From Acinetobacter wanghuae (GTDB lineage: Bacteria; Pseudomonadota; Gammaproteobacteria; Pseudomonadales; Moraxellaceae), in NCBI RefSeq assembly GCF_009557235.1, contig NZ_CP045650.1:1380001-1412000 (forward strand): a stretch of 32,000 nucleotides of DNA, written 5' to 3'. Shown in pieces: positions 2,552-27,957 of this stretch; position 1 is the stretch's first letter, and the number at the start of each line of letters is the position of its first letter. Both the position numbers and the translations under genes were made by a program. The notes beneath the pieces were generated by a model, which was given only the letters and a program-made list of their open reading frames with translations, was not told the origin of the DNA and did not search any database.

Positions 2552-2581
2552 TATAAATCACAACCATCACACCTTCTTAAT

Positions 2582-2612
2582 AAAAGCCCTTCGGGGCTTT
2601 TATTATTTTCAT
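2582..2612 (+). terminator. Rho-independent terminator after the tailspike gene
   Basis: AAAAGCCC-TTCG-GGGCTTTT hairpin (2582-2601) followed by a T-rich tract. Confidence 0.8.
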
Positions 2613-2651
2613 TCAAAAGTGCTATTATAAGGAAAACTTATATCGGGTTCG

Positions 2652-2840
2652 GTGCGCATTACAAGACATATGTTTGTTAATGAAGCGAACCATCATAAGA
2701 CAATAAAGGGAGTTCTAAAAAAGAAAGGAGCAGGCGAAATCTATATGCTACGCATGGAAGAATGCTTGGCTGTAGAAATGACTTATCAGCGTAGACGTAT
2801 TGATAAAATTGAACAAATATTGAATAACTCAAGTAATTAA
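2652..2840 (+). CDS. Small hypothetical phage ORF; start uncertain (candidates 2652 GTG, 2670 ATG, 2745 ATG)
   Basis: Only ORF between two terminators. AAAGGAG lies about 13 nt upstream of ATG 2745. The C-terminal part (MLRMEECLAVEMTYQRRRIDKIEQILNNSSN) looks helical. No family recognised. Confidence 0.3.
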   Translation: MRITRHMFVNEANHHKTIKGVLKKKGAGEIYMLRMEECLAVEMTYQRRRIDKIEQILNNSSN

Positions 2841-2856
2841 CCAGCAAACCCACATC

Positions 2857-2888
2857 AAACCTGATCTTTAATTAGATCAGGTTTTTTA
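2857..2888 (+). terminator. Rho-independent terminator
   Basis: AAACCTGATC (2857-2866) pairs with GATCAGGTTT (2875-2884) around an 8-nt loop, followed by TTTTATT. Confidence 0.75.
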
Positions 2889-2911
2889 TTGCCAAAATTT
2901 AGGGGAAGTAA

Positions 2912-3286
2912 ATGGAGCCGGTCTCTAGTAGTGTTGCTGCATTTTTAAAATTTTATGGGATGTTTATTGTCACATCGTTGGCGATATTAATGGTCGCAAC
3001 AGTTGTTCTCATGATGCGTCTGCCGCGATCACCGCAAGAATGGGTTACTGGCTTGATCTGCACGATCGTTTCTAGTTTGGCAGGTGGGGCTTTCATTATT
3101 GTGAAATTTTCATTACATCAATGGGTTACTGATATTTGGGGGATGATTGCCCTTGGTGGGTTTTTCTTTGCTTGTGGTTTGCCGGGTTGGGCCGTTGTGC
3201 GTTGGGTGTTTAATTTAATTGAACAACGTGAAGGTCGAACAATTTTAGATATTTTGCGTGAATTTAAAGAGGAATGGAAAAAGTGA
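2912..3286 (+). CDS. Putative holin (three TM segments, charged C-terminus)
   Basis: 124 aa with three hydrophobic stretches and a highly charged tail (EQREGRTILDILREFKEEWKK). Lies immediately upstream of the endolysin gene and overlaps it. Confidence 0.65.
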   Translation: MEPVSSSVAAFLKFYGMFIVTSLAILMVATVVLMMRLPRSPQEWVTGLICTIVSSLAGGAFIIVKFSLHQWVTDIWGMIALGGFFFACGLPGWAVVRWVFNLIEQREGRTILDILREFKEEWKK

Positions 3287-3828
3287 ATATTGAGCAATTT
3301 CTTAACGACTTAATCAAGCGCGAAGGCGGTTATGTAAATATTGCAGCTGACCGTGGTGGCGCTACCAAATACGGTATTACTGAATCAGTAGCTCGGGTAA
3401 ATGGCTATAAAGGCAATATGAAAGACCTGCCCGAATCTTTAGCGCGTGATATTTATCGAAAGCAATATTGGATTCAGCCACGTTTTGACCAAGTAAATAA
3501 TATTAGCCCATTGATTGCTGAAGAATTACTAGATACTGGTGTGAACTGTGGTGTTGGTTTTGCTAAACCCACCTTGCAGCGTGCCTTGAATTTACTCAAC
3601 AACCAAGGCAAAGGTGGCTGGTCTGATTTAGCAGTCGATGGTGTATATGGCCCAGCAACCCTAAATGCATTAAAAACCTTTTTATCTAAGCGTGGTAAAG
3701 AGGGTGAAAAGACATTGTGGAAAGTCTTGAATATCATGCAGGGTAATCGCTATATCGAAATCACTGAACGCAACCCAAGCCAAGAGCAATTTTTCTTTGG
3801 ATGGATCTCACAGCGGGTGGCGCTATGA
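3274..3828 (+). CDS. Endolysin, glycoside hydrolase family 108 N-terminal domain + PG_binding_3-like C-terminal domain
   Basis: REGGYVNIAADRGGATKYGIT matches the GH108 EGGY...GG.T.YGIT signature. The C-terminal DGVYGPATLNALKTF is peptidoglycan-binding-like. An alternative start is GTG 3283, which forms a GTGA overlap with the holin stop and sits 9 nt after GAGGA. Confidence 0.85.
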   Translation: MEKVNIEQFLNDLIKREGGYVNIAADRGGATKYGITESVARVNGYKGNMKDLPESLARDIYRKQYWIQPRFDQVNNISPLIAEELLDTGVNCGVGFAKPTLQRALNLLNNQGKGGWSDLAVDGVYGPATLNALKTFLSKRGKEGEKTLWKVLNIMQGNRYIEITERNPSQEQFFFGWISQRVAL

Positions 3829-4220
3829 TTAAAACATTCATCGCTAAATTTTATGAAGCCGTCATCATTGTATTGACGGCTTTTTTATTACTTGCACTTA
3901 TTGGCTTTGGTGTGCAGACATGGCGAGCTTCACATTGGAAAGCCAAATTTAACAGCGCAGATGCTGCCTGTGTTGAACGCATCAACAAAGTAAATAGTGC
4001 ATATCAATCTACAATTGACGCATGGCGAGCCAAAGTATTCATTGTTGAGAATGAACTGGAAGCTGAGCGCAATAACATCAAAGTTGAATTTCGAGATATA
4101 AAACATGAAACTCAAAAAGTCACTACTAACATTATCTATCGTGATTGCAAGCTTGATGACGCAGGCATGTCAATCGCGGAACGTGCCCGCATTGCCGCAA
4201 ATACCCGCAAGCCTCCTTAA
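3825..4220 (+). CDS. Rz-like inner-membrane spanin (i-spanin)
   Basis: ATG 3825 forms an ATGA overlap with the endolysin stop. It has an N-terminal TM (AVIIVLTAFLLLALIGFGV) followed by a coiled-coil-like charged domain, and contains the o-spanin start in another frame. Confidence 0.7.
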   Translation: MIKTFIAKFYEAVIIVLTAFLLLALIGFGVQTWRASHWKAKFNSADAACVERINKVNSAYQSTIDAWRAKVFIVENELEAERNNIKVEFRDIKHETQKVTTNIIYRDCKLDDAGMSIAERARIAANTRKPP

Positions 4221-7408: not shown

Positions 7409-7879
7409 TCATTTTTTACTCAGCTCCATGTTGTAGACTCCAGCAATTAAATTGAATCTTAAGCCTAATCTTTTGCCGCGGTTGCGATATCGCTCGGTAA
7501 GGATTTTGAAGGTTTTCAAACTGCCAAATACATGCTCAATCTCAATTCTTCTTTTATTGATTTCTTGATTGTAGACTTTTAGTTCGGGATGTAATTTGCA
7601 GCGCTTCTTTGCTTTAAGAGGCAGTAAGCTATTTGGATACACTGCGTAAATCCCTTGATAGCCTTTATCTGCAAGGATAAAAGACCCTTTAGGAACCTGA
7701 TTTAAATTGCGTTTGAATAGCTCGAAATCATGTACAGCACCACGACTCGTGCATAAACTCAGAACTTGCCGAGTTCTATAATGGATAATGGCTTGAACTT
7801 TAAAAGTATGTGCCTTCTTCTTGCCACTATAGCTTTTCTTCTGTTTTTTTAGGTCTTTGTATTGGAATTTCTGTGGCAT
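7409..7879 (-). CDS. Transposase OrfB (DDE catalytic C-terminal part)
   Basis: YSGKKKAHTFKVQ..., ILADKGYQG and RRIEIEHVFGSLK are typical IS5-type DDE motifs. It overlaps OrfA by 53 nt and lies in the +1 frame relative to OrfA. Confidence 0.8.
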   Translation of the reverse strand: MPQKFQYKDLKKQKKSYSGKKKAHTFKVQAIIHYRTRQVLSLCTSRGAVHDFELFKRNLNQVPKGSFILADKGYQGIYAVYPNSLLPLKAKKRCKLHPELKVYNQEINKRRIEIEHVFGSLKTFKILTERYRNRGKRLGLRFNLIAGVYNMELSKK

Positions 7880-8273
7880 CTACGATCACCACATTCCAGT
7901 CGATACCTTCGCCTTCAGGCAAATTCTTCGGTAAATTGAATAGATTGGACTTGATTAGACAATCCTCTACATGGCGGACGATTCTTGAAGCAGTAGGCTC
8001 TGACACGCCATAACTTGTTGCGACATGGAATAAAGTTCGGTATTCACGCCAATAGCTCAGACAGAGTAAAACCTGATCTTCTACACTTAACTTAGGTGGT
8101 CTACCTTTAGTCGGGACATGCATTTTCAGTTGTTCAACCATTAAATCAAAGGTTGAAAAACTGATGCCTGTATATCGCTTAAACTGTGTTTCAGAAAGCT
8201 TCTTCAAATCAATGTATTTCATCCGCAGATTATGCATGAATATATAAAATTCTTCGGTACAAATAATCAGCAA
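7827..8273 (-). CDS. Transposase OrfA (HTH / N-terminal part, includes first catalytic-Asp region IVDAT)
   Basis: Sequence MKYIDLKKLSETQFKRYTGISFSTFDLMVEQL...GRPPKLSVEDQVLLCLSYWREY...VSEPTASRIV is typical of IS5-type transposase N-termini. The probable start is ATG 8237 or 8222 rather than TTG 8273. It ends at TAG 7827-7829, just after an A7 run. Confidence 0.8.
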   Translation of the reverse strand: MLIICTEEFYIFMHNLRMKYIDLKKLSETQFKRYTGISFSTFDLMVEQLKMHVPTKGRPPKLSVEDQVLLCLSYWREYRTLFHVATSYGVSEPTASRIVRHVEDCLIKSNLFNLPKNLPEGEGIDWNVVIVDATEIPIQRPKKTEEKL

Positions 8274-9715: not shown

Positions 9716-10318
9716 ATGTCGAATCAGTTTTTAGATTTAATTACTAAACGCCGTACCATTTATGCCATTGGCAAGAACGTTGAACAGACGCCAGAATACC
9801 TCACTGATTTGATTCAAAACGCAATTAAGCAAAGTCCATCTTCATTTAATTCGCAATCATCACGTGCTGTGATTCTTTTTAGTGCAGCGCATGAAAATTT
9901 TTGGGGCCTTGTTGCTGACAAACTGAAAGACTATGCAAAAGACGAAGAAAGTGCAGCAAAAACCACAGCGAAAATGGCAACATTTGCAGCAGGTGTGGGT
10001 ACAGTTTTGTTCTTTGAAGATCTTGATGTCATTAAAGGTTTACAAGACAGTTTCCCATCGTATGCAGAGAATTTCCCAATTTGGGCTGAACACTCAACTG
10101 CAATTGCTCAATTTGCAACGTGGACTGCATTGCACACTGAGGGTTTAGGTGCCTCTTTACAGCACTACAATCCAATTGTAGACGAACAAGTGCATAACGA
10201 ATGGGATATTCCTGCCAACTGGAAACTTCGTGCACAATTGGTATTTGGTTCGGTTGAAGGCGAAGCACGTGCTAAAGATTACATCGCAGACGATGTTCGC
10301 TTCAAAACATTTAAATAA
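9716..10318 (+). CDS. Nitroreductase-family protein (Frm2/Hbn1-like subgroup)
   Basis: 200 aa. The N-terminal RRTIYAIGK…SPSSFNSQSSRAVIL and C-terminal GLGASLQHYNP resemble the nitroreductase fold. AAGGA lies upstream of the ATG. Confidence 0.8.
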   Translation: MSNQFLDLITKRRTIYAIGKNVEQTPEYLTDLIQNAIKQSPSSFNSQSSRAVILFSAAHENFWGLVADKLKDYAKDEESAAKTTAKMATFAAGVGTVLFFEDLDVIKGLQDSFPSYAENFPIWAEHSTAIAQFATWTALHTEGLGASLQHYNPIVDEQVHNEWDIPANWKLRAQLVFGSVEGEARAKDYIADDVRFKTFK

Positions 10319-13201: not shown

Positions 13202-14038
13202 ATGGAAACCGATAGAAACATCATAGATTTTATTAAAAGTCATATGGTGGATTTACATAAGAAAAGATCGAGATCTGACGGTTTAGCAATTATTCTTTTT
13301 CTCGATATTGACGGCACAATCTCAGAGTTTCATATTGACCCCGAACAAAGTTTTATCGCACCTGAAATATTAGGAACAATTGAACATTTAAATCAAATCA
13401 TTGATCTTTTTTTAGTCACGGGAAGATCCATCCAACAAGCACAACACTTGATCTCCCCTTTTGACTGGAATATTGCTGCTTCGCATGGACTTGAGCTTTA
13501 TCATCAACAGCAAACACAAAATCTAATTCATTTTAACCATACACAATTTAATGCACTAAAAACATATTTGCGTGAAGCGATTGACACAAAAATTCCCATA
13601 CGAATTGAGGAAAAACCTTTTTCCATTGCTTTACATTTTCGTGAGCATCCTCAACTCGAAAGCTTTGCACAAAATATTATAAAACAATGCCTTGAACATT
13701 ATGATGACTTTGAACTGAAGTCAGGAAAATACGTTTTTGAATTGGTCGCCAAAGGCTGTCATAAAGGCATCGCGATACAACATATTTTATCTCAATCCGA
13801 CGATCTAAATCTTTGCCCTATTTTTATTGGTGACGATTTGACAGATGAATCTGGTTTTGAGGTCATTAATCAACATCATGGAATTTCAATCAAAGTCGGT
13901 TCAGGACTCAGCCAAGCGAAATTTCGCTTAAAAAATGTCACAGCAGTTGGATGCTTTCTACAGGATTTATTTAAAGAATTAAAAGTACAACAACACATCA
14001 TTGGAGAATCAAATGTCAAAACTCATTGTATTGTCTAA
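13202..14038 (+). CDS. otsB: Trehalose-6-phosphate phosphatase
   Basis: HAD motif I FLDIDGTISEF, motif VTGRS, and C-terminal GDDLTDE. Overlaps and precedes otsA. Confidence 0.9.
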   Translation: METDRNIIDFIKSHMVDLHKKRSRSDGLAIILFLDIDGTISEFHIDPEQSFIAPEILGTIEHLNQIIDLFLVTGRSIQQAQHLISPFDWNIAASHGLELYHQQQTQNLIHFNHTQFNALKTYLREAIDTKIPIRIEEKPFSIALHFREHPQLESFAQNIIKQCLEHYDDFELKSGKYVFELVAKGCHKGIAIQHILSQSDDLNLCPIFIGDDLTDESGFEVINQHHGISIKVGSGLSQAKFRLKNVTAVGCFLQDLFKELKVQQHIIGESNVKTHCIV

Positions 14039-15446
14039 TCGCGTGAGCCTACCTCATCCTGATTCACAGCAAGCCGGTGGCTTAGCAGTCGCTTTAGAAG
14101 ATGCTTTAAATGGTGTCGGTGGTATTTGGATGGGGTGGAATGGTGAACAAAGCACAGAGAAACAAGATACATTTGACATCATTCATGAAAAAAATGTGGA
14201 GTACCATACTTGTGCGCTGAGTGAAGCGGAATATCAGGGCTATTATTGTGGATTTGCCAACGGCGTTCTATGGCCACTCATGCATGAACAGAAAAAATAT
14301 ATCGAATTTAAAGCCCATGAATATCAAATCTATCAAGATGTAAATTTAAAATTTGCTCAACACTTAAATAAAATTGCGTCATCTGAAGATGTTATTTGGA
14401 TTCATGATTACCATTTCCTAAGCGTTGCGCACTATTGTCGTCAGTTGGGAATGAAAAATCGAATTGGCTTCTTTTTACATATTCCATTTCCCGAACGAAC
14501 CCAGTGGAAAAGCGTTAAACCTTACCAGGAATTAGCGCAGCATTTAGCGCAATATGATTTATTGGGTTTACAAACAGACTATGATCAAACATATTGTTTT
14601 GATTTTTTAAGACAAACATTGGGACTAAAAGCGCACGATGCAAATACATTATCCGATCAAACACGTCAGATCAAGATTAACTGTTACCCGATTGGTGTAC
14701 ACCCGACGGCGCTTCAAAAACGTGCTGCTGACAGTATTGATGTAGCGCTTCCTTTTTCTGATCTTAACAACCCGAATATTCAAAATATTATTTCAGTGGA
14801 TCGAATTGATTACAGCAAAGGTTTACTTGAGAAAATAACTGCTTTTGATGCGTTCTATAAACATTATCCTGACATGAAAAACCAAGTTCGCCAATTACAA
14901 ATTGCTTGTCCTTGCCGTTTAGATGTCGATACTTATCGATCTTTATATGACACATTTAAAGCCAAGGTTGATCAACTCAATCAAAAATATGCAGAATCAG
15001 AAAGCCCAGTTTTTAGCTGTAGTTTTGAAGCGATCGCTCACCATGAATTGATGCATTTATATCGTCATGCGGATATTTGTTGGGTCAACTCTATCCGTGA
15101 TGGTATGAACCTTGTTGCCAAAGAATATATTGCAGCGCAAGACCCGATAGATCCTGGCGTTTTAATCTTATCGAAATATGCTGGGGCTGCTGAACATATG
15201 CCAGAAGCCATTATCGTCGATCCGTTTAATGTGAAAAGCATGATGAAGGCATTAAATCAAGCGATTCATATGCCGCCATCTGAGCGTCTAGCTCGCTATA
15301 AACTTTTATTTCAAGGGTTGAAGGATTTTGACATTATTCAATGGCGCAATCATTTTATTGGTGATTTAAATCGTTCTGGTCAAAGCGTCATCTATCTGCC
15401 AAGAAATAAAGCAGCGCGCTATGATGCAATAAACTTATCTATTTAA
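14013..15446 (+). CDS. otsA: Alpha,alpha-trehalose-phosphate synthase (UDP-forming)
   Basis: MSKLIVLSNRVS… matches the OtsA N-terminus pattern and the gene is GT20-like throughout. GGAG at 14002-14005 lies 7 nt before ATG 14013, which I prefer over the track start at 14001. Confidence 0.93.
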   Translation: MSKLIVLSNRVSLPHPDSQQAGGLAVALEDALNGVGGIWMGWNGEQSTEKQDTFDIIHEKNVEYHTCALSEAEYQGYYCGFANGVLWPLMHEQKKYIEFKAHEYQIYQDVNLKFAQHLNKIASSEDVIWIHDYHFLSVAHYCRQLGMKNRIGFFLHIPFPERTQWKSVKPYQELAQHLAQYDLLGLQTDYDQTYCFDFLRQTLGLKAHDANTLSDQTRQIKINCYPIGVHPTALQKRAADSIDVALPFSDLNNPNIQNIISVDRIDYSKGLLEKITAFDAFYKHYPDMKNQVRQLQIACPCRLDVDTYRSLYDTFKAKVDQLNQKYAESESPVFSCSFEAIAHHELMHLYRHADICWVNSIRDGMNLVAKEYIAAQDPIDPGVLILSKYAGAAEHMPEAIIVDPFNVKSMMKALNQAIHMPPSERLARYKLLFQGLKDFDIIQWRNHFIGDLNRSGQSVIYLPRNKAARYDAINLSI

Positions 15447-15472: not shown

Positions 15473-15495
15473 CACCAGCATTATGCTGGTGTTTG
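15473..15495. terminator. Shared hairpin between convergent otsA and the MFS gene
   Basis: CACCAGCA-TTA-TGCTGGTG is followed by TTTG. It overlaps the MFS stop codon region. Confidence 0.55.
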
Positions 15496-16713
15496 ATTAT
15501 GATGCTCGACTTCATTTTCATAGACAGGTTCATGGGCATGAATCATGTGATACAAAAATGCAATGCCAGAGAGTGCAACAGCCACCACCATAAACACGGT
15601 GGACAGTCCAAAAATATCTCCACCGAATCCAACAATAGCAGGTCCCATTAAAGAACCGGTATACGCAAATAAAGACACGTAAGATAACGCAACATGTGAT
15701 GCTAATGCTTTTTGACGACCAGCAAAAGAAAACATGAGTGGAACAATATTAGCACTGCCTAAACCTAACATGGCATAACCTAGCAAAACCACTTGCCAAA
15801 CTGGTGCAATGACCACGGTTGCCATGCCACAACATGCCAATATCGCACTGATTAAAATTGTATTTTTTTCACCTAAACGTTGCACGATCCACTGCCCGCT
15901 TAAGCGACCTGCCACCATGAGTGCAGCAAAGAAACTATATGCCAAACCTGAATGAGCTGGATCAATTTTAAATCGTGTATTGAGATAAATCCCACTCCAG
16001 TCCATGGCTGCACCTTCTGATAAAAATGCAATAAAACAGATAAGTCCAATACTAATAATCGCAAGATTTGGACGTGATTTACTCGTAGGCTGATCTGTTA
16101 CAGATATAACCGAATCTTGTTGTTGTGATTTTAGGCAAAATGGGACGGCGCAACATGCAATCATCACGAGCACGATGCTGACCATAAGCATACTCACAAG
16201 AGGCGTAAATCCAAAACTCAGTAAGGTTGTAATACCAAGTACACCTGCCAACCCACCCAAACTACAGATTCCATGAAATACAGGCATCATATTTTTTTGG
16301 CTATATTTTTCTAATTGTGATGCTTGCAGATTTACCGTAACACCCAAAGCCCCTGCACTCGCACCAAAACAAAATAAAGCACTGGCTAAGATCCAAACAG
16401 TTGGACTCATGGCTAACATAGGTAATATGAACATAAACGCAAATAGAGTCACAGCAAGCACTGGGCGACAGCCAAATTTATGTGCGAGTTTTCCTGCAAT
16501 AGGCATTGCAATCATAGAGCCAATACCAGCGCCCAATAACAATAACCCAAAATCTGAATGACTCAGAAATAAACGTTTCTTTACATAGGCAATGATGGGT
16601 GCCCATGCTGCTGTTGCAAAGCCAAGACTAAAAAAGCACAGCGCAGTCGCGATTTTTTGCCAAGTAGAATATTGAAAGTTTTGAAAAGCATGAAGATTGA
16701 GTCGTGAAAACAT
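15481..16713 (-). CDS. MFS transporter
   Basis: About 12 hydrophobic segments with MFS-like loop motifs. The track ORF extends to 16782, but the first 23 codons are not membrane-protein-like. ATG 16713 (MFSRLNLHAF…) is preferred. Confidence 0.85.
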   Translation of the reverse strand: MFSRLNLHAFQNFQYSTWQKIATALCFFSLGFATAAWAPIIAYVKKRLFLSHSDFGLLLLGAGIGSMIAMPIAGKLAHKFGCRPVLAVTLFAFMFILPMLAMSPTVWILASALFCFGASAGALGVTVNLQASQLEKYSQKNMMPVFHGICSLGGLAGVLGITTLLSFGFTPLVSMLMVSIVLVMIACCAVPFCLKSQQQDSVISVTDQPTSKSRPNLAIISIGLICFIAFLSEGAAMDWSGIYLNTRFKIDPAHSGLAYSFFAALMVAGRLSGQWIVQRLGEKNTILISAILACCGMATVVIAPVWQVVLLGYAMLGLGSANIVPLMFSFAGRQKALASHVALSYVSLFAYTGSLMGPAIVGFGGDIFGLSTVFMVVAVALSGIAFLYHMIHAHEPVYENEVEHHNQTPA

Positions 16714-16914
16714 AGTACAGCCAGCATCAAAAGTAAATTGCAGGCATCCATAACCCGTAATCCATAGAAAAACCCTATGCAACGTGATTCAATTACAATA
16801 CGTTACATAGGGTCTAATTGCGCAAATTATAGTCGCTTTTATTTCAAAAGGAATACTTTTCCAGCATTTTTTTAATCAAAATAAGCAAGCTTTTGATTCA
16901 ATAATATTTATAGT

Positions 16915-17634
16915 TTAAATTATTTTTCGAGCTAGATTTAAAGTCTCATTTTGCAGGGCTTGCTGTTCTAATTTTTGTAAAAAATGTGCAAAACCCTGCT
17001 CAACACGTGAACTTAAACGGCTACTGGTTTGCACACGTACTTTATTCGACCAAATGATATTTAAGCCTTGCTGTTCGGCACGTTGCACTAAATCCACATC
17101 TTCATGACAAGGCATTGCTTTAAAGCCACCTAAACTTTGATACGTCTTAGCGCTAAAACTTAAATTTGCGCCATGAATATGTCGATGATGCATTTTATCT
17201 TGATAATGCTGCTCATAGCTTTGACGTGTATACGCACTTAAATGTTGCCATGCATTTAATTCGACAATACCACAAATCATATCGGCTAAAGGCGTCAGTA
17301 GCATCGTATTAAACCAATGGGTAGAAACCATTGAGTCAGCATCGGTACAACACAGCCAATCACACTCTTGCGCAATTAATGCCTGAATGCCCAAATGCCG
17401 ACTTTTACCTACACAAGCATAATCACATTCAAGATAGTCAATCTCCAAGTTCTTTACCTTATCTAAGGTTTGATCTGTACAACAATCTAAAACTACCAAT
17501 ACCTGAATTTCGGGTAAATCATCTACATGATGATATTTCGATACATTCAATTTCGCTTGAGCAATTGCGTGCAAACAATTTTCGATATCATCTTGTTCAT
17601 TACATGCAGGAATAACGACACCAATTTTCTTCAT
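16915..17634 (-). CDS. Glycosyltransferase family 2 (small, soluble, 239 aa)
   Basis: N-terminal VVIPACNEQDDIENCL and DxD-like CTDADS. Its ATG overlaps the preceding stop (ATGA at 17631-17634). Confidence 0.85.
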   Translation of the reverse strand: MKKIGVVIPACNEQDDIENCLHAIAQAKLNVSKYHHVDDLPEIQVLVVLDCCTDQTLDKVKNLEIDYLECDYACVGKSRHLGIQALIAQECDWLCCTDADSMVSTHWFNTMLLTPLADMICGIVELNAWQHLSAYTRQSYEQHYQDKMHHRHIHGANLSFSAKTYQSLGGFKAMPCHEDVDLVQRAEQQGLNIIWSNKVRVQTSSRLSSRVEQGFAHFLQKLEQQALQNETLNLARKII

Positions 17635-18248
17635 ATGAGTCCCTCTTCATCCGCAATAGAGGTTTGAGTCTGACGCCATACATCTAACAAAAAATCTGCG
17701 TCTCCTAATTGCAGATAATGCGGATAGCTTAACTTTTCTTTCAGTAAGGTATGTACCGCTTGCCCATTCATTTCAAAATGTTGAATGGGCTGAAGCCAAT
17801 GACAGGCTAATATTGACCCATTTGGATTTAACGCGGTATTTAACCATTCAATCACCTGTAAAAGTGAAGTCTGATCTAAGTAATACAGCACCTCACTTAA
17901 TACGATCAGATCAAATTTTTGCTGTGGCAGGTCTTGCGGGATAATGCCTTGAATGACTTCTACATGACGATGCTGTTGTAAACGCTGTTTAGCCAATGAA
18001 ACCGCTATCTGATTGGCATCTAGACAGTATAATTTTTGGCATCGTGCTGCGAGTTGCTCACTTAACACGCCATTGCTACAACCCATCTCAATCGCATTAC
18101 TGAATTGAGCATTCGGTAAAACTGCTAACGTTATGTTACGTTTACGTTGCTCATACCAACGTTGTTCATATTGCCATGGGTCACCTTCATTCACCGCATA
18201 CAAGGCATCAAAATAATCATGATCGTAATTTGATTTGTTAGTCTCCAT
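17631..18248 (-). CDS. SAM-dependent methyltransferase, NodS-like
   Basis: SAM motif I IEMGCSNGVLS, acidic motif II CLDAN, and LIVLSEVLYYL. 11-nt overlap with the upstream gene. Confidence 0.85.
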   Translation of the reverse strand: METNKSNYDHDYFDALYAVNEGDPWQYEQRWYEQRKRNITLAVLPNAQFSNAIEMGCSNGVLSEQLAARCQKLYCLDANQIAVSLAKQRLQQHRHVEVIQGIIPQDLPQQKFDLIVLSEVLYYLDQTSLLQVIEWLNTALNPNGSILACHWLQPIQHFEMNGQAVHTLLKEKLSYPHYLQLGDADFLLDVWRQTQTSIADEEGLI

Positions 18249-19023
18249 GAAGATAAACCTCCCATGGCTGTAACAATCGATCTAAGGTGGTTTTCGATAA
18301 AATCGCTGCTTGCCCAGTACTTGGATCTGGCATAAGCTGACTTTCAAAACAAGCTGTAGCTAATGCCTTGCGCTCTAATTGTTCAGGGCTAAGGGTTAAT
18401 TTAAGTGCATTATCCCAAGGAATACGTGCATCTTGTGGTTTCGCCCAATGCCATGCCCAAATCAAGACCTGTAAATATGATAATGATAAGGTTTGCGCAA
18501 TTTGTCTTACCACCTGACCACATGCCTCATGATCAGGATGACCATCTTTTTCAAAAGTTGTGATTAAGACATCATGAGGTTTTAAATGACTGCAAAGTTT
18601 TTCTTCCAAAGATCGTTTTTGACTATAAATTTCCCCATCTGGAATACCCAGCTCAATGCGTTGAATATTGTGCTGAAGCCCTAAGCTTTTTAGTGCAGCT
18701 AAGCTTTCATACGGTCGCACTTTATTTAATTGATGTCGGCTATATATGTCAGAATTTGGATGGCTCGCGGTTCCGTTGGTGACTGCAAAGAGAATAATCT
18801 CAAGACCCAATGCATCAAGTTGTTGAATTAACCCTGCACAACCTAAAATTTCATCATCAGGATGAGGTGCAATTAGACAAACACGACTATTTTTTGCAAA
18901 AAACGAATGTGGCTCAAAAGCGTTCAATTCATTTAAGAAAGAACCATTCTGCCAAAGATCGACAGATGTACCCTCACCATAAATGAGTCTATCACCCACA
19001 AGAGGATGATCTATAGTATCCAT
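18238..19023 (-). CDS. LmbE / PIG-L family N-acetylglucosaminyl deacetylase
   Basis: APHPDDEILGCAG and GHPDHEACG zinc-binding motifs. 13-nt overlap with the upstream gene. Confidence 0.88.
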   Translation of the reverse strand: MDTIDHPLVGDRLIYGEGTSVDLWQNGSFLNELNAFEPHSFFAKNSRVCLIAPHPDDEILGCAGLIQQLDALGLEIILFAVTNGTASHPNSDIYSRHQLNKVRPYESLAALKSLGLQHNIQRIELGIPDGEIYSQKRSLEEKLCSHLKPHDVLITTFEKDGHPDHEACGQVVRQIAQTLSLSYLQVLIWAWHWAKPQDARIPWDNALKLTLSPEQLERKALATACFESQLMPDPSTGQAAILSKTTLDRLLQPWEVYLHGD

Positions 19024-20012
19024 ATACCATGCTCCTGCAATGCTAATTCACCAATTCGTTCTAAATCAAAAGCCGCATGACTTTGTCGAATAAATACGGG
19101 GAGATCCGCAGCCAATTGCGCAAAATTTGCATGATTACAATACGGCGCCGCACCTAATGCTTTGCCTGTGAGCTCTAATACTTTTAATACGGTATTTTCG
19201 ACATTCGCTCTTAACGCTCGAATCTGTAATTCATGTGTTTTTTCAGGTTCAGCATCTATCAACTGCGCTGTTTGATAAAAAAGTGCTTGTGTAGCGAACA
19301 TATGGGACGTCATTTCACCCAAATACATGTATTTATAGGCGTGAGGCTTATGTACTGTTGCCTCGTGTAGATATTGTGCTAAACGTTGTGCTGCACCAAA
19401 CCAACATGCGGCAACGCCAGCTGCACCATGCCAAAATCCTGCACGTGTTAAATAAAGATTGGGTTCACCTATCAGTTCAATTGGGACATGATCAAATTGG
19501 AGTTGAGCCGTATGTGTATGCTGCATTCCAACAGCGTGCCAATCATTGAATTGTTGTTGAATACCAGACTCAGCCAAATGAACCATCAGTAATTGTGAGT
19601 TTTGCTTTGCGTCTCGATAAGTCATGACTGCATGATTGACCCAATCGGCAGCGGAACACCAATTTTTTACACCAGAGACATGTCCATCTTGTAATGTTAA
19701 AGGTGGCGAAGCGCCTTCTGCTGCCCAAACTGCCCACAACTCATGCTTAGCCGTTTCAAAGGCATGACCCGTTTCATTTAATATGGCTAATGCATCTAAA
19801 TGTGACTCAAAAATTTTGGCAAGGCTTAAATTAATGCCAGCGACTCGGCTTAATATTTGCCAACGCTTTAGCGTATTCCCTTGTGCGGGATATGGAATTT
19901 CATCTGAATATGGGATGAGTTCAAATAATGCGTCATGAATGTTTTGTTCTAAATCTGATGCACGAGCATCCCAATCACGAGATAACTGTTCAAGAACCAA
20001 ATCAAGATCCAT
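19011..20012 (-). CDS. Acyl-CoA dehydrogenase-fold protein (short, atypical)
   Basis: GVKNWCSAADWVNHAVM resembles the ACAD GxKxWITN..AD segment. The C-terminal helical domain aligns loosely. The canonical …IYEGT… region reads FIRQSH. 333 aa. Confidence 0.7.
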   Translation of the reverse strand: MDLDLVLEQLSRDWDARASDLEQNIHDALFELIPYSDEIPYPAQGNTLKRWQILSRVAGINLSLAKIFESHLDALAILNETGHAFETAKHELWAVWAAEGASPPLTLQDGHVSGVKNWCSAADWVNHAVMTYRDAKQNSQLLMVHLAESGIQQQFNDWHAVGMQHTHTAQLQFDHVPIELIGEPNLYLTRAGFWHGAAGVAACWFGAAQRLAQYLHEATVHKPHAYKYMYLGEMTSHMFATQALFYQTAQLIDAEPEKTHELQIRALRANVENTVLKVLELTGKALGAAPYCNHANFAQLAADLPVFIRQSHAAFDLERIGELALQEHGIWIL

Positions 20013-20103
20013 CTTGGCTCCTCTTCTATTATTGTTAAGTCGGTTGTTTATTCATCTATATTGAAGAAAAATTGGTTTTTTAAATGTTCTATTTTGTCAA
20101 TAA

Positions 20104-20143
20104 ATTGAAAAGCCACGAAACAATCTGAACTGTTCCGTAGCTT
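20104..20143 (-). terminator. Rho-independent terminator of katE
   Basis: On the minus-strand RNA, AAGCUACGGAACA pairs with UGUUUCGUGGCUU (13 bp including 2 G-U) around an 8-nt loop, followed by a U-rich tail. Confidence 0.6.
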
Positions 20144-20166: not shown

Positions 20167-22293
20167 TTATGCAGGAATCGCTTCCGCTGCAGCTTCACGT
20201 GCCCAAATACGATGTAAGCGAATCAACTTTTTAAAGTGATCTTTCACCGCGCTAAAGTCTTGATCTGCCAATGTACCTTCATCTTTTACAAGATTTAAAT
20301 CATCAAGCAGTTGAGATTTATCACCTAAAAACACAATTGGTTTTAAGTGCTTATACGCTTCAAGTAAATAATGCTTGGTCACACCATCTTGAATGGCCAC
20401 ATCATAGTTATCACCATCTACAATAATCACTGCATCATAAGCAATTGAAGGTTCTGCTTTTTGCATACCATCAGATGGGACTTCGGCTTTATCTGTATTG
20501 AGTACAGGAGCAGGTTTAGGCGTTAAAATTTCGGCAACAGCACCTTCAGCTTTTGCCCAAGCCTGAATCGCATCAATATTGCTTTGATTCACATCATCAT
20601 GAACCAAGACTGCAATTTTTTTAGCTTTAATATCTTCAGGGTTAAATGCTTCTAAAGATAATTTAGCCGATGTTTGAACAGAAGCTTGTTTATTCTTTTG
20701 TGCATTTGCAGGAATTTTAATGCCCAATTGATCTGCGACTTGTTGTGCCAAATCTAGATCAATATTGCACAGTACCTCTAAGACTTCACGTTCGCGAATA
20801 TGCACTCGTTCTACTTTGCTCAGCTCAAAGACATAGGCATCGACCACATGCTTTTGCTCGTGTGGTGCGAGACTTTGGAAATATAAGCGTGCTTGGCTAA
20901 AGTGATCTGAGAACGATTCGCTACGTTGACGAATTTTATGTCCATCAATGCGTTCCTGATAACTTTCAAATCCGCCATTTTCTGCGGCAGCCGGTGTTTC
21001 AGCAGGCCAATTATTATCAATAGAATTCGGTTGATATGCAGCTTGTCCACGATGAATCGTATGCTGATGAATACCATCACGTTGATTATTATGGAATGGA
21101 CAAACAGGCTTATTGATTGGAATTTGATGGAAATTCGGTCCACCTAAACGGCTTAATTGCGTATCGGTATAAGAAAACAATCGTGCTTGTAATAATGGAT
21201 CATTGGTGAAATCAATTCCCGGCACAATATGTCCCGGACAGAATGCCACCTGTTCTGTTTCTGCAAAGAAGTTATCGATATTTCGATTTAGGACAAATTT
21301 ACCAATTGGCGTCACCGGAACAAGTTCTTCAGGAATCAGTTTTGTTGGATCGAGTAGATCAAAATCAAACTTCATCTCATCTGCTTCAGCAATCACCTGT
21401 ATTCCCAGTTCCCATTCAGGATAATTGCCCGCTTCAATGGCTTCATAAAGGTCACGACGATGGAAATCAGGATCTTTACCCGCTAACTTTTGTGCTTCGT
21501 CCCAAACTAACTGCGCACAGCCTTGTTTTGGTGTCCAATGGAACTTCACAAATACCGCTTTATTATTGGCATCAATTAAACGGAAGGTATGAACCCCAAA
21601 ACCTTGAATCGATCTTAAATTACGAGGAATCGCACGATCTGACATTGCCCACATAACGGCGTGTGCTGACTCTGGTACTAAAGAGACAAAATCCCAGAAG
21701 GTATCATGTGCAGATGCGCCCGTTGGGATTTCAGTATGTGGTTCAGGTTTTACGGCATGTACAAAGTCTGGGAATTTAATACCATCTTGGATAAAGAATA
21801 CTGGTGCGTTATTCCCTACTAGGTCGAAGTTACCTTCTTGTGTATAGAATTTAATGGCAAAACCGCGAATATCTCGAACAGTATCCGCTGAACCACGTGG
21901 TCCTTGAACTGTTGAAAAACGCACAAAAATCGGCGTTTGAACCGATGTATTGGTTAAAAAACCTGCTTTAGTAAATTTTTCATTCCCCGGATAAGCTTCA
22001 AAGTATCCATGTGCGCCCACACCACGCGCATGTACAATCCGTTCTGGAATACGCTCATGATCGAAGTGGGTAATTTTTTCACGTAAGATAAAATCTTCGA
22101 GTAATGTTGAACCACGTACACTCGATTTTAAGCTGTTCTGATTATCTGCAATCTTAACCCCATGATTGGTGGTCAGTGCCTGTTCTGAAGCATCGCTTCG
22201 ATTTAAATCAAGTTGTTTATTTTTCTCATTTATATTTTGTTTATCCAGACTATCGGTTCCTGCCACTTGGCTGGTCTGTGGATTTTTTTTCAT
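20167..22293 (-). CDS. katE: Large-subunit (HPII-type) catalase with C-terminal DJ-1/PfpI-like domain
   Basis: FDHERIPERIVHARG and RLFSYTDTQ catalase signatures, ~708 aa with a C-terminal extension. ATG 22293 is preceded by AGGA 8 nt upstream and is preferred over GTG 22311. Confidence 0.95.
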   Translation of the reverse strand: MKKNPQTSQVAGTDSLDKQNINEKNKQLDLNRSDASEQALTTNHGVKIADNQNSLKSSVRGSTLLEDFILREKITHFDHERIPERIVHARGVGAHGYFEAYPGNEKFTKAGFLTNTSVQTPIFVRFSTVQGPRGSADTVRDIRGFAIKFYTQEGNFDLVGNNAPVFFIQDGIKFPDFVHAVKPEPHTEIPTGASAHDTFWDFVSLVPESAHAVMWAMSDRAIPRNLRSIQGFGVHTFRLIDANNKAVFVKFHWTPKQGCAQLVWDEAQKLAGKDPDFHRRDLYEAIEAGNYPEWELGIQVIAEADEMKFDFDLLDPTKLIPEELVPVTPIGKFVLNRNIDNFFAETEQVAFCPGHIVPGIDFTNDPLLQARLFSYTDTQLSRLGGPNFHQIPINKPVCPFHNNQRDGIHQHTIHRGQAAYQPNSIDNNWPAETPAAAENGGFESYQERIDGHKIRQRSESFSDHFSQARLYFQSLAPHEQKHVVDAYVFELSKVERVHIREREVLEVLCNIDLDLAQQVADQLGIKIPANAQKNKQASVQTSAKLSLEAFNPEDIKAKKIAVLVHDDVNQSNIDAIQAWAKAEGAVAEILTPKPAPVLNTDKAEVPSDGMQKAEPSIAYDAVIIVDGDNYDVAIQDGVTKHYLLEAYKHLKPIVFLGDKSQLLDDLNLVKDEGTLADQDFSAVKDHFKKLIRLHRIWAREAAAEAIPA

Positions 22294-22632
22294 GATCCTA
22301 TTCCTTAACACATAAGCAGTACATTAAAATAATAAAGTGATCTCACATCGCCTAAATGCACTCAGCATACGTCTTGAAAATGCTTGAATTTTTTATTGTG
22401 CATTATGGGTAATGTTTAATAAGTACACTGATCACATTATTTTAAAACGCACCACGTCCTTGTTATTTTTTTCACTCTTTGTGTAAGTAATACGCTACTT
22501 TTTTATTTTGCGTTCATGGTCTGTATCGAAGCTGCTAATAAGTATCACGTTGGGTAAGAATCAATGTTATTTCATATGGAAAAAGACTTTTAAATCAAAT
22601 CAAAAATATATTTTACTGTATGGATTAAGAGC

Positions 22633-25714: not shown

Positions 25715-26878
25715 TTATAAGAACTTCGCTTTCAGTCCTTGAACCAAAGATTTCGCTGTTGAAACTTTGTCTTTTACCTGTGCTGTCCAATCATTTGGCA
25801 ATGAACATTCTGCTAAGCGCACCCAGACTGTCGAGAACTGTTTCATAAAACTTGCTTCGTTATAATTCAGTCCATATTCAGCACACAGTGCTTTAATTTT
25901 AGGCGCAACTTCTGCATAACGGTTGGCAGGCATATCAGGGAACAAATGATGTTCTATTTGATGGCTCAAATTACCACTTAAAATATGCAACCATGTTGTT
26001 CCAGTAAAGTTACTTGAACCACGAATCTGACGGACATACCATTCAGCACGTGTTTCATTATCCACATTATCAAGTTCAAAGTTTTCTGCATCTTCAGTGA
26101 AATGACCATTAAAGATCACAGCAGATGCCCAAAGGCTGCGGATGACATTGGCAACGGCGTTTCCAGCAAATACAGGAATCGCGTTTGGTCCTGCAATCAG
26201 TGGGAAAAACACATAATCTTTCACCACCTGACGGCGCATTTTTTTGCGTAATGGCGCAGCCTCTTCCCAAACTTGTTTCCATGTTTTAGTTTTATAGACC
26301 AGAGCATCTTCTAAATGCAGACGTTGTAGACCGACGTACCATTCAAAGAACACCATCAATTGAATGCCGAGTGGAATATTAAATAGGAAACGGGGTTCCC
26401 ATTTTTGTGCATCGCTGACACGTACCAAACCATAGCCAACATCGTGATCCATACCCACAATATTGGTATAGGTATGATGGATATAGTTATGGGTATATTT
26501 CCAATCATCACCCGTAGCAATTGTATCCCAGTCGTAGGTTGTACCATTTAATGAGGGATCATTTAACCAGTCAAATTGTCCATGCATGACGTTGTGACCA
26601 AGTTCCATATTTTCGACAATTTTAGAAATACCAAGTAAGCCTGTGCCTAACAACCAGACTGGCGGCAACCAACCCGCGAACATCAACATCCCACGCGATG
26701 CAATCTCACTATAGCGAACGAAATCACGAATTTTATAAATATAATTCGCATCTTTTTCACCTAGATCATCCATCACTTCACGACGGATGGCTTCAATTTT
26801 TTCACCCAGCTCTTGGGTTTGTTCTGGGGTTAGAAATTTAGATTTACTGTTCGGATTTAACTGGATACTCATGTTCAT
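25715..26878 (-). CDS. Membrane fatty-acid (acyl-CoA/acyl-lipid) desaturase, DesB-like
   Basis: Three His boxes (HNVMHGQ, HNYIHHTYTN, HQIEHHLFP). Paired with an upstream reductase gene. Confidence 0.9.
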   Translation of the reverse strand: MNMSIQLNPNSKSKFLTPEQTQELGEKIEAIRREVMDDLGEKDANYIYKIRDFVRYSEIASRGMLMFAGWLPPVWLLGTGLLGISKIVENMELGHNVMHGQFDWLNDPSLNGTTYDWDTIATGDDWKYTHNYIHHTYTNIVGMDHDVGYGLVRVSDAQKWEPRFLFNIPLGIQLMVFFEWYVGLQRLHLEDALVYKTKTWKQVWEEAAPLRKKMRRQVVKDYVFFPLIAGPNAIPVFAGNAVANVIRSLWASAVIFNGHFTEDAENFELDNVDNETRAEWYVRQIRGSSNFTGTTWLHILSGNLSHQIEHHLFPDMPANRYAEVAPKIKALCAEYGLNYNEASFMKQFSTVWVRLAECSLPNDWTAQVKDKVSTAKSLVQGLKAKFL

Positions 26879-26896
26879 GCGATCACCTCATTCTTT

Positions 26897-27919
26897 TTAT
26901 AAGTTAATTACAACAGGACTGATGGCTTGAGAAATACACAGTTTAATCGGCGTATTTTCTTCGTGATCAATTTCACCTGTTAACACATTACGGACTGAAC
27001 CACTGACTTTCGTACACGAACAGGTATTGCAAATGCCCATGCGACAACCATGCGCTGGTTTTAATCCTGCTTGCTCTGCACTTTCTAACAAATTACTTTT
27101 GGCTTGAAAATCTTGCTGAGATCTTAAAAATTGCACGGGCTGTGCTTCAAGCGATTCATCCACCACAATTTGGAAAAATTCACTGTGATAATGATCATTC
27201 ATTTCAAATTTGCGCATGATCTTTTCAACACTTTGCATCATGCCTGTTGAACCACAGGCATAGATTTCGCATTGCGTGAAATCAGCAATGAGTTTCTTGA
27301 GCAACGCTTGGGTTAAATACTGCTTTTCTTCTAGCGTATTAATATGATGATAACGGAAATGCGGTGAAACCAACGCTAAAGTTTTTAACTCTGCATGGAA
27401 TGCATCATCCCGTGTAAAATAAATTAAATCAATATCTTGATTGGTTTGTGCCACCGCTTTTTGTAATAAAGAATAAATCGCCGTGATCCCACTGCCCGAG
27501 GCTAAAAACAGCATCGGACGTGCATTTGATTTCAGTACAAAGTCACCTTGCGGTTGCGATATTTCAACGACAACACCAACTGATAATGCACTTAACATAC
27601 GCGACACTTTGCCTTGTTGTTTAACCGCAATAATCACATCGCCATTTTCTAAAATGGTCACGACTGAATAATGACGTTGATGACGAACACCACCAATACG
27701 CAGCGTAACAGCGATACTTTGACCTGCTTGAAAGCTGGCTGCTTTGAAATTTTGATTCGGGCGCAGTTGAATTTTAAAGAAATCTGGGCTGACGGCTTGA
27801 ATTGTTATGATTTCAGCTTTGACTTTCTTAAATGCCCATGTTGGATGTATTTTTTCAGCAACGAAATCGATGAAATCTTCGCGTACCCATTCAGGCTTAT
27901 ATGTATTCAAACTTGTCAT
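26897..27919 (-). CDS. Ferredoxin-NAD(P) reductase-type oxidoreductase with C-terminal 2Fe-2S domain (DesC-like desaturase partner)
   Basis: RHYSV FAD motif, LFLASGSGITAI NAD(P)-binding motif, and C-terminal CRMGICNTCSC…C cluster motif. ATG 27919 is preceded by a G-rich SD and is preferred over TTG 27934. Confidence 0.9.
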   Translation of the reverse strand: MTSLNTYKPEWVREDFIDFVAEKIHPTWAFKKVKAEIITIQAVSPDFFKIQLRPNQNFKAASFQAGQSIAVTLRIGGVRHQRHYSVVTILENGDVIIAVKQQGKVSRMLSALSVGVVVEISQPQGDFVLKSNARPMLFLASGSGITAIYSLLQKAVAQTNQDIDLIYFTRDDAFHAELKTLALVSPHFRYHHINTLEEKQYLTQALLKKLIADFTQCEIYACGSTGMMQSVEKIMRKFEMNDHYHSEFFQIVVDESLEAQPVQFLRSQQDFQAKSNLLESAEQAGLKPAHGCRMGICNTCSCTKVSGSVRNVLTGEIDHEENTPIKLCISQAISPVVINL

Positions 27920-27957
27920 ATGTCTTGCCCCCAAATTAGCGACAGTAATTAATGTAC

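Follow-up and report, generated by a model that had tools for sequence, protein, structure and literature searches.

A 32,000-nucleotide (nt) stretch of Acinetobacter wanghuae DNA (assembly GCF_009557235.1, contig NZ_CP045650.1, positions 1,380,001 to 1,412,000; hereafter the window) carries on its minus strand a block of four overlapping genes, which is the subject of this report. In the direction of transcription, gene 1 (19011..20012, 333 aa) encodes a flavoenzyme-like protein of acyl-CoA dehydrogenase (ACAD) fold, gene 2 (18238..19023, 261 aa) a predicted metal-dependent de-N-acetylase of the PIG-L/LmbE family, gene 3 (17631..18248, 205 aa) a NodS-like class I S-adenosylmethionine-dependent methyltransferase (MT), and gene 4 (16915..17634, 239 aa) a small, soluble family-2 glycosyltransferase (GT2) of GT-A fold. 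Read on the minus strand, the stop of gene 1 and the start of gene 2 overlap by 13 nt (ATGGATACTATAG), genes 2 and 3 by 11 nt (ATGGAGACTAA), and genes 3 and 4 by 4 nt (ATGA), and a GAGGAG ribosome-binding site at 20023-20018 lies 5 nt ahead of the gene 1 ATG. A first-pass annotation, made by a model from the sequence alone, had reported the same four open reading frames (ORFs), with these coordinates and overlaps; the ORF list and our reading of the sequence match it exactly, and the motifs it quoted were all found (PHPDDE and HPDH, EMGCSNG, VVIPACNE and TDAD, GVKNWCS).

The block is bracketed by two hairpins. Upstream, an AT-rich spacer (20013..20109, minus strand), which our sequence reading presumes to contain the promoter, separates gene 1 from an intrinsic-terminator-like hairpin of the preceding katE gene (20110..20143, minus strand). 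This hairpin, a 15-pair stem followed by a U-rich tail, folds at −19.9 kcal/mol (z −6.2), and none of 200 shuffles was equally stable; the katE terminator described in the first-pass annotation is thus real and strong, and it is predicted to insulate the operon from katE transcription. Downstream, a second terminator-like hairpin with a U-run was recognized by its folding energy relative to shuffles (16766..16815, minus strand). It spans about 16815-16770, is followed by UUUUU, and lies about 100 nt past the GT2 gene (−23.5 kcal/mol, z −6.3, 0/200 shuffles). A pattern scan had overlooked it because of its long loop, and it likely forms the predicted 3′ end of the four-gene transcript. With a hairpin on either side, the four genes look like a self-contained unit. 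A separate promoter had been proposed at 20013-20100, and this proposal fared less well: a consensus scan detected no sigma-70-like consensus there at the scanner's threshold, so that a promoter of the operon's own is plausible, and alignment of the upstream regions of 10 Acinetobacter loci revealed no conserved element.

Published exponential-phase RNA-seq data for Acinetobacter baumannii ATCC 17978 show the four orthologous genes, ACX60_RS06405-06420, as one transcription unit, with 4.7 to 5.0 fragments per kilobase per million (FPKM) for each gene. Moreover, the four A. baumannii genes, labelled as one operon, fall together by 31- to 62-fold in colistin-dependent mutants (PMC5660220). The equal FPKM values and the joint change agree with the earlier view that the four genes are one unit. 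Taken together, the overlaps, the hairpins, the junctions kept among related loci, and the A. baumannii RNA-seq data identify the block as a single operon, read in the present strain from its sequence.

Genes 2 to 4 each scored above a Pfam cut-off. The gene 2 product matched PF02585 with 92.9 bits (cut-off, 28.2) over profile positions 2-128 of 129. Among 83 orthologues, at least 97% retain its motifs APHPDDE and DGHPDHE (GHPDHE; DGHxDHE across the family), which align to their counterparts in the solved structures 8BGN, 3WE7, and 1UAN (diacetylchitobiose deacetylase, TT1542); the nearest solved relatives of the gene 2 product are chitobiose deacetylases. The scores were below the equivalog cut-offs for BshB1 (54.9 versus 182.5, the best NCBIfam match), BshB2 (34.4 versus 195), and Mca (16.3 versus 277). 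By profile and by its metal-binding and catalytic motifs, this protein belongs to the LmbE/PIG-L family, and deacetylase activity is predicted for it. The gene 3 product contains a NodS domain (PF05401, 62.2 bits; cut-off, 24) and stays below the NodS equivalog NF041650 (83.4 versus 300). It aligns to NodS (3OFJ) over residues 17-147, with DPW, ExGCxxG, and FDLIVxxEVLYYL common to both. An orthologue of known structure, PDB 4ISC ("Methyltransferase"), aligns end to end over all 163 residues (E 1e-43) and shares with gene 3 the family motifs RWYExRKR, CHW, and DFLLDxW; 4ISC carries no functional annotation, so it provides a structure for gene 3 but no function. Across orthologues, DPW…WYExRK, ExxCxNG, and FDLIVxSExxYYL are conserved.

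The GT2 matched PF00535 with 40.7 bits (cut-off, 23.3) and conserves PAxNE, VVxDxCxD, TDAD (the invariant DxD), HxHxHGANL, and HEDV. Its AlphaFold2 (AF2) model has a pLDDT of 92 and a GT-A fold; no PDB sequence match was obtained. It is not a processive membrane synthase of the NodC, PgaC, or hyaluronan synthase (HAS) type, as it has no transmembrane segment, TSSR replaces QxxRW, and it scores 21 against a PgaC cut-off of 422. Conservation of catalytic motifs was scored across 83 to 85 non-identical orthologues of the genes, and their invariance was counted in favor of active enzymes. No NCBIfam equivalog cut-off was reached by any of the four proteins, with BshB1, BshB2, Mca, NodS, MftF-like, HpnI, SfnB, and DszC all far below. 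We also tried and rejected an anti-phage defence reading: PADLOC gave just a generic methyltransferase-domain match to mad2 and none for the other three proteins.

The GT2 also had weak profile matches to HpnI (17.5 versus 310), Glyco_transf_21, and PgaC-type families, and a polyprenyl-phosphate mannosyltransferase was among its structural matches. Such matches would suit a system that modifies a lipid-linked or envelope glycan, in which the GT2 would act on polyprenyl phosphate or a membrane lipid, PIG-L would deacetylate as in glycosylphosphatidylinositol (GPI) anchors or hopanoid glucosamine (GlcN), and the MT and oxidase would tailor the product, altering stationary-phase surface charge or membrane stability. 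We regard this as unlikely. The four proteins are without a transmembrane or strongly hydrophobic segment, whereas the adjacent major facilitator superfamily (MFS) transporter has 106 hydrophobic windows; the GT2 lacks the C-terminal membrane region and the QxxRW motif of processive enzymes; and no conserved flippase, polymerase, or lipid-carrier gene was present in the loci and plasmids examined. The absence of hydrophobic segments from the four proteins indicates that the pathway is cytoplasmic and soluble.

The gene 1 product remained below the Pfam cut-offs for Acyl-CoA_dh_M (23.5 versus 33.3) and Acyl-CoA_dh_1 (16.3 versus 22.4) and gave no Acyl-CoA_dh_N match, and its best NCBIfam matches, SfnB (21 versus 431) and DszC (16 versus 850), were far under cut-off. 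Its AF2 model (pLDDT 96) adopts the three-domain ACAD fold, with Foldseek probability 1.0 and TM scores of 0.7-0.83 to many ACAD-fold structures. The top ranks were held by 5Z8T, DszC/TdsC, the nitrososynthases DnmZ, KijD3, and ORF36, as well as MsuC and Rv3094c, and true ACADs ranked just behind these flavin monooxygenases. When a profile of the gene 1 family was used, the N-terminal half aligned only to DszC, TdsC, and MsuC (positions 25-189), with an identical CSG motif: GxKxWCSGA in gene 1 resembles GTKAFCSGSA in TdsC, while the true ACAD 2DVL has GVKSWITSAG. The profile alignments to 2DVL stop at position 308, ahead of the family-invariant RQSH, in a comparison made at the profile level; the catalytic glutamate of ACADs, in a YEGT-type segment, sits at about the RQSH-equivalent position. 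RQSH and RPGFWHGxxGxAACWxGA are invariant motifs specific to this family, which comprises 205 representatives with E < 1e-30 at the 50% clustering level. On these data, gene 1 is probably a flavin monooxygenase of the DszC/nitrososynthase type, not a canonical acyl-CoA dehydrogenase, and the profile, the Foldseek ranking, and the CSG motif all favor the earlier suggestion that it acts by amine oxidation and not by acyl-CoA dehydrogenation.

The likeness to the group D ACAD-fold monooxygenases (KijD3, ORF36, DnmZ, DszC/TdsC, SfnB, and MsuC) comprises the fold (TM scores, 0.75-0.83), the GxKx(F/W)CSG flavin-side motif, and an alignable N-terminal substrate-pocket helix. Within this group, the nitrososynthases carry out the reaction that we propose for gene 1, oxidation of an amino-sugar amine. 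On the other hand, gene 1 is just 13 to 18% identical to these enzymes, is about 60 residues shorter, has invariant motifs of its own, reaches no equivalog cut-off, and is encoded with no flavin reductase alongside. Were gene 1 a genuine dehydrogenase of acyl-CoA or acyl-acyl carrier protein (acyl-ACP), as the databases annotate it, the block could yield a Nod-factor-like, N-acylated glucosamine lipid by means of the GT2, the deacetylase, N-methylation, and N-acylation with an unsaturated chain. The true ACADs that trail the monooxygenases only slightly in the fold search would fit such a scheme, as would the parallel of the GT2, deacetylase, and NodS-like proteins to NodC, NodB, and NodS. We consider it highly improbable, since no locus contains a NodA-like acyltransferase, the Pfam ACAD cut-offs are unmet with no N-terminal ACAD domain detected, the flavin-proximal motif is the DszC-type CSGA and not the ACAD-type WITxx, the ACAD alignments stop short of the catalytic-Glu segment where this family has its invariant RQSH, and the GT2 is small and non-processive. 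For all four proteins, then, the families named in the first-pass annotation hold: PIG-L, NodS, and Glycos_transf_2 above Pfam cut-offs, and the ACAD fold through the high-confidence model and Foldseek.

To assess conservation of the set, related loci were collected by a genome scan with a 10-sequence alignment. The scan confirmed at least 462 loci, the best 80 of which supplied the neighborhoods; a heuristic set the gene starts in related loci, and the PLSDB gene tables are incomplete. The complete set was found in 90 of 94 related loci, namely, in 83 of the 84 collected first and in 7 of 10 added afterwards, and its genes mostly overlap or abut. Such recurrence of the same four genes indicates that the arrangement is not due to chance. 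The order ACAD, PIG-L, MT, GT2 was found in 83 of the 84 first loci, and overall the genes follow one order or a circular permutation of it. Most junctions overlap, and Acinetobacter and Pseudomonas even share the 13-nt overlap. The set ranges over Gamma- and Betaproteobacteria and Actinobacteria, in the genera Acinetobacter, Psychrobacter, Moraxella, Enhydrobacter, Pseudomonas, Xanthomonas, Pandoraea, Streptomyces, Kitasatospora, Mycolicibacterium, Rhodococcus, and Nesterenkonia; cluster names for the family add Comamonas, Burkholderiaceae, and Herbaspirillum. Streptomyces keeps the same gene order with three 4-nt overlaps, all four genes are present in Xanthomonas and Kitasatospora, and in Mycolicibacterium and Rhodococcus the order is circularly permuted to GT2, ACAD, PIG-L, MT. 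Natural fusions also occur, namely, ACAD+PIG-L+MT (in Nesterenkonia, with the GT2 gene 3 nt upstream), GT2+ACAD, and MT+GT2.

Four of the 94 loci are exceptions: one lacks PIG-L and one lacks an orthologous PIG-L (both considered below), and two have a disrupted GT2. Among the degenerate or variant copies of the block, GT2 is split in two pieces on a Pandoraea plasmid (L092, 11248-11905), and in L006 a shortened match allowed no intact GT2 ORF to be called. The first-pass annotation had made its reading depend on the four genes co-occurring beyond close relatives, and co-occurrence and overlap do extend across genera and phyla. Two further entries look like contamination or mislabelling in public assemblies. 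One, labelled Streptomyces cinereus JCM 3040 (L055), is co-linear with Moraxella osloensis loci, with the same coordinates and identities, and the other, labelled "Enterobacterales bacterium" (L068), matches the Pseudomonas entomophila/alabamensis pattern.

In the window, the operon stands among stress genes. Directly upstream on the same strand is katE, encoding an HPII catalase (20167..22311; NF008422, 1175 bits versus a cut-off of 1102). Downstream, also on the minus strand, lies the MFS transporter gene (15481..16713), the product of which has a weak TsgA-like match. The mechanical TTG start of the MFS ORF (15481-16782) is at 16782, inside the terminator-like hairpin, so that the true start is probably the ATG at 16713. 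Convergent with the block on the plus strand are otsB-otsA (13202..15446), encoding trehalose-6-phosphate phosphatase and synthase (TIGR00685 above cut-off; OtsA as best match). These neighbors recur. Of 59 Moraxellaceae loci, 44 have otsBA next to the block, and two arrangements occur. All 24 loci from Psychrobacter, Moraxella, and Enhydrobacter have otsB-otsA directly upstream on the same strand, with a gap of only about 50 nt (e.g., L003, 5418-11556), which suggests a six-gene operon coupling trehalose synthesis to the pathway. In Acinetobacter, otsBA are found in 20 of 35 loci, mostly convergent beyond the MFS gene as in the window, and katE adjoins the block in 17 of 35 and also on plasmids. 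In 19 Acinetobacter loci, and on plasmids as well, GT2 and otsA have the MFS gene between them; speculatively, its product is a possible exporter or importer for the pathway. In the A. baumannii group, a very highly expressed DUF2171 gene stands beside the block, and several species have a BLUF photoreceptor gene there. BLUF genes next to the block were seen in Xanthomonas, A. seifertii, A. calcoaceticus, and A. vivianii (L088, 5179-5730; L024, 10373-10843; L047, 10113-10580; L050, 10056-10523), in agreement with published maps of blsA and AnBLUF65 in A. baumannii and A. nosocomialis; the window contains none.

Outside the Moraxellaceae, the neighbors change, and DNA repair genes appear. Of 25 Pseudomonas putida-type loci, 22 have ligD directly upstream on the strand of the block, and 19 have a convergent ku downstream; the single Streptomyces locus has an ATP-dependent DNA ligase gene directly downstream. 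A ligD-block-ku arrangement could mean that the four enzymes make no free metabolite and that their target is a macromolecule (e.g., RNA, a protein, or a base or end of DNA) connected with DNA-end repair or dormancy, and the spore-photoproduct-lyase family gene near the Kitasatospora block and the umuDC-like, SRAP, and xseAB genes on an A. ursingii plasmid would fit that explanation. We nevertheless judge it very unlikely. Neither ku nor ligD neighbors the block in any Moraxellaceae locus examined, Pfam and NCBIfam recognize no nucleic-acid-binding domain in the four proteins, and to our knowledge all characterized LmbE-family and NodS enzymes act on small glycosides. Furthermore, genes for non-homologous end joining (NHEJ) are stationary-phase and desiccation genes, and the linkage to ligD and ku is therefore explained by shared regulation. 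Across lineages the neighbors vary, but the functional repertoire is the same, that of survival of desiccation and dormancy.

The block is also found on genuine Acinetobacter plasmids of 75 to 220 kb. Three hits in the plasmid collection (H1-H3) are A. baumannii records of 3.6 to 4.1 Mb, presumably chromosomes, and plasmid counts are to be read accordingly. Two plasmids share an island of about 13 kb (L090, 3470-16826; L091, 3481-16822) consisting of a catalase gene, a DUF421 gene, two small ORFs, a gene for an "iron-containing redox enzyme", a DUF2171 gene, the block, the MFS gene, otsA, and otsB. IS256 and IS3 elements border the island on the A. towneri plasmid; on that of A. ursingii, the umuDC-like, SRAP, and xseAB genes lie near it. 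Plasmids of other genera have comparable neighbors: CsbD and YqjD genes in Pandoraea; genes for catalase, a PA2169-family protein, GlgE, and a PRC-barrel protein in Cupriavidus; and genes for a ferritin-like protein, the spore-photoproduct-lyase family protein, a PRC-barrel protein, and Ppk2 in Kitasatospora.

By annotation, size, and position, the plasmid-encoded "iron-containing redox enzyme" is taken to be a homologue of DtpC (ABUW_2437). DtpC is co-transcribed with katE in A. baumannii, and KatE and DtpC are experimentally needed for desiccation survival; DtpC is an N-oxygenase-like diiron enzyme, and its authors propose that it may synthesize a protective small molecule (PMC13232832). Judged by similarity to the plasmid protein, A. 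puyangensis and at least seven Pseudomonas loci also have a dtpC-like gene close to the block. The KatE-DtpC pair of A. baumannii thus resembles the four genes in its published RNA-seq regulon behavior, and it adjoins the block on Acinetobacter plasmids and in A. puyangensis and lies near it in Pseudomonas. It differs in that dtpC is unlinked from the block in A. baumannii, and a role of the block itself in desiccation can be proposed by association.

Expression data connect these genes independently of their position. Only 33 genes were down by >10-fold in two independent colistin-dependent A. baumannii lineages, and they include otsA/otsB, the catalase gene, the DUF2171 gene, and all four genes of the operon (PMC5660220). 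In A. baumannii, the four genes are unlinked from otsA/otsB, catalase, and DUF2171. Co-regulation despite the lack of linkage supports the view that the window arrangement, otsBA, MFS, block, and katE, is a gathering of one regulon. The strong decrease in colistin-dependent mutants could also be cited for the envelope-glycan explanation discussed above; however, these mutants lose the whole stress regulon and not the operon alone. With otsBA, katE, dtpC, and ligD/ku as neighbors and with co-regulation in A. baumannii, the stress link is far stronger than the first-pass annotation, which saw otsBA and katE, could perceive, and association of the operon with stress genes is well supported.

The same data bear on a catabolic explanation, in which the block would be a degradation or detoxification module for an exogenous amino-sugar compound (an aminoglycoside-like antibiotic, a chitin fragment, or a xenobiotic) that is merely co-located with stress genes. 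The LmbE family includes conjugate amidases and chitobiose deacetylases, the latter being the nearest solved relatives of gene 2; an MFS transporter gene is often 3′ of the block; and the block can be plasmid-borne. Nonetheless, two of the enzymes, the glycosyltransferase and the methyltransferase, are of anabolic tailoring types, and the loci show no conserved kinase, hydrolase, or regulator of the kind usual in catabolism; both the co-regulation with otsBA and katE, which occurs without added substrate, and the dormancy-gene context in three bacterial classes point to an endogenous role. Catabolism is therefore quite unlikely in our estimate.

Several characterized pathways resemble the four-gene set in part. 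The Nod-factor enzymes of rhizobia offer the closest logic: a GT2 (NodC) builds a GlcNAc (N-acetylglucosamine) glycoside, a deacetylase (NodB) frees the amine, and a NodS-type enzyme methylates, a sequence that is here proposed from the genes; gene 3 has the NodS Pfam domain and motifs. NodB, however, is a CE4 enzyme, whereas the deacetylase here is of the LmbE/PIG-L family, and the 239-aa GT2 is soluble and non-processive and lacks the NodC membrane domain. Furthermore, nodA, nodB, and nodC are absent from every locus, as is a NodA acyltransferase, and the hosts are non-symbiotic. In the bacillithiol (BshA/BshB/BshC) and mycothiol (MshA/MshB/MshC/MshD) pathways, as would be the case here, a GlcNAc conjugate of a small acceptor is formed, an LmbE-family enzyme deacetylates it, and the pathway ends in a redox protectant of the cytoplasm. 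The transferase in those pathways is a GT4 and here a GT2, and no cysteine ligase was found in any locus examined, an MT and a flavoenzyme standing in its place. In the hopanoid branch (HpnI/HpnK), an alcohol acceptor receives GlcNAc from a GT2, after which a deacetylase gives the glucosaminyl product. HpnK is not known to be an LmbE-family enzyme, and the acceptor of HpnI/HpnK is a membrane hopanoid; the HpnI match here is weak (17.5 versus 310), no hpn genes are near the block, and the proteins are soluble. Scores thus stayed below every equivalog cut-off, and the partner enzymes differ (GT2 and not GT4, no ligase, no NodA). The earlier statement that the block is neither a mycothiol, a bacillithiol, nor a Nod gene set agrees with these results, no corresponding equivalog cut-off having been reached.

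We therefore favor, at a probability of about 0.5, the explanation that the operon encodes a soluble, cytoplasmic pathway of four enzymes acting on a common substrate and belonging to the stationary-phase, desiccation, and oxidative-stress gene set of aerobic environmental bacteria. In such a pathway, a small acceptor in the cytoplasm would first receive an N-acetyl-hexosamine from the GT2, in all likelihood GlcNAc with UDP-GlcNAc as donor; the LmbE-type metalloenzyme would then strip the acetyl group and expose the amine; the NodS-like enzyme would methylate the freed amine; and the ACAD-fold flavin monooxygenase would oxidize it, e.g., to a hydroxylamine or nitrone. Alternatively, the tailoring steps could take place on the nucleotide sugar, with the GT2 acting last. 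The product that we infer, a small amino-sugar conjugate, would aid non-growing or dried cells beside trehalose, catalase, DtpC, and NHEJ repair. A more specific version, which we put forward as rather doubtful, is that an N-methylated, N-oxygenated glucosamine glycoside is formed, possibly on trehalose or another stationary-phase solute, that it acts as an antioxidant or tames iron in dried cells, and that the pathway is a widespread, horizontally mobile part of desiccation tolerance in bacteria and a partner of DtpC where the latter occurs; this glycoside could even be the molecule hypothesized for DtpC.

A number of observations weigh against the favored pathway. No equivalog cut-off was reached, and consequently the profiles assign neither donor nor acceptor; nor does the GT2 model give a clue to the acceptor, as it matches a generic spread of GT2 enzymes at TM scores of about 0.6. 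Flavin binding by gene 1 is only predicted, and a flavin reductase gene is neither in the operon nor conserved across loci. One Pseudomonas locus (L082) has no PIG-L. The Cupriavidus plasmid (L093, 4976-5698) has no orthologous PIG-L; it carries an unrelated PIG-L-family gene beside catalase, which is not detectably orthologous and was thus not counted as a relocated member. No dtpC homologue is present in the window. The neighborhood link may reflect co-regulation or island hitch-hiking and not shared function. As to regulation, BfmR controls KatE and, according to the literature, trehalose genes, yet in exponential-phase bfmS, bfmRS, and bfmR mutants of A. baumannii the four genes were very low and did not change significantly, and we therefore do not claim BfmR regulation of the operon. 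Lastly, our literature search found no experiment that ties the four genes to a phenotype or metabolite. Searches by enzyme combination and by orthologue locus tag retrieved no published function assignment, the block appearing only as unlabelled arrows or table rows.

Altogether, the enzyme families, the single unit, the co-occurrence, the stress link, and the amine oxidation put forward in the first-pass annotation stand, and the promoter was not borne out by the consensus scan; its remark that no pathway could be assigned is still true after profile, structure, and literature searches.

Elsewhere in the window, a gene for a nitroreductase-family flavoprotein is located at 9716-10318, about 3 kb from otsB. 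Some nitroreductase-family enzymes are NAD(P)H:flavin reductases, and its product could accordingly feed reduced flavin to a two-component monooxygenase. Phage-derived genes occupy 425-4220, probably a prophage edge. One encodes a tail-spike-like protein of 708 aa whose N-terminal extension is of the endosialidase type, another a GH108 lysozyme that also has a peptidoglycan-binding domain, and with them is a small overlapping ORF. Two overlapping ORFs at 7409-8273 correspond to the helix-turn-helix (HTH) and DDE halves of a DDE_Tnp_4-type transposase, forming an insertion sequence (IS) element between fumC and the otsBA side that is possibly expressed by frameshifting. The region 25715-27934 contains a gene for a fatty-acid desaturase and, after it, one of ferredoxin-reductase type (FAD/NAD-binding and 2Fe-2S domains); genes for a cation diffusion facilitator (CDF) efflux protein and a GGDEF diguanylate cyclase are next to them.

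Non-sporulating bacteria such as Acinetobacter can outlast weeks of dryness on hospital surfaces, a clinically important ability for which only a handful of factors are known: KatE, DtpA/B/C, trehalose, and control by BfmR/CsrA. The operon described here accompanies known desiccation factors on chromosomes and plasmids and, in other phyla, lies beside NHEJ and spore-type repair genes. It represents a four-gene candidate for the synthesis of a new protective metabolite and a possible biochemical partner of DtpC. As a new pathway, it would be assembled from known enzyme families, and its interest lies in the link to desiccation and dormancy in multiple lineages and in the possible connection to DtpC. 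If our explanation is correct, the logic of GlcNAc transfer followed by LmbE-type deacetylation, as used for mycothiol and bacillithiol, would extend to a new class of compounds in Proteobacteria and Actinobacteria.

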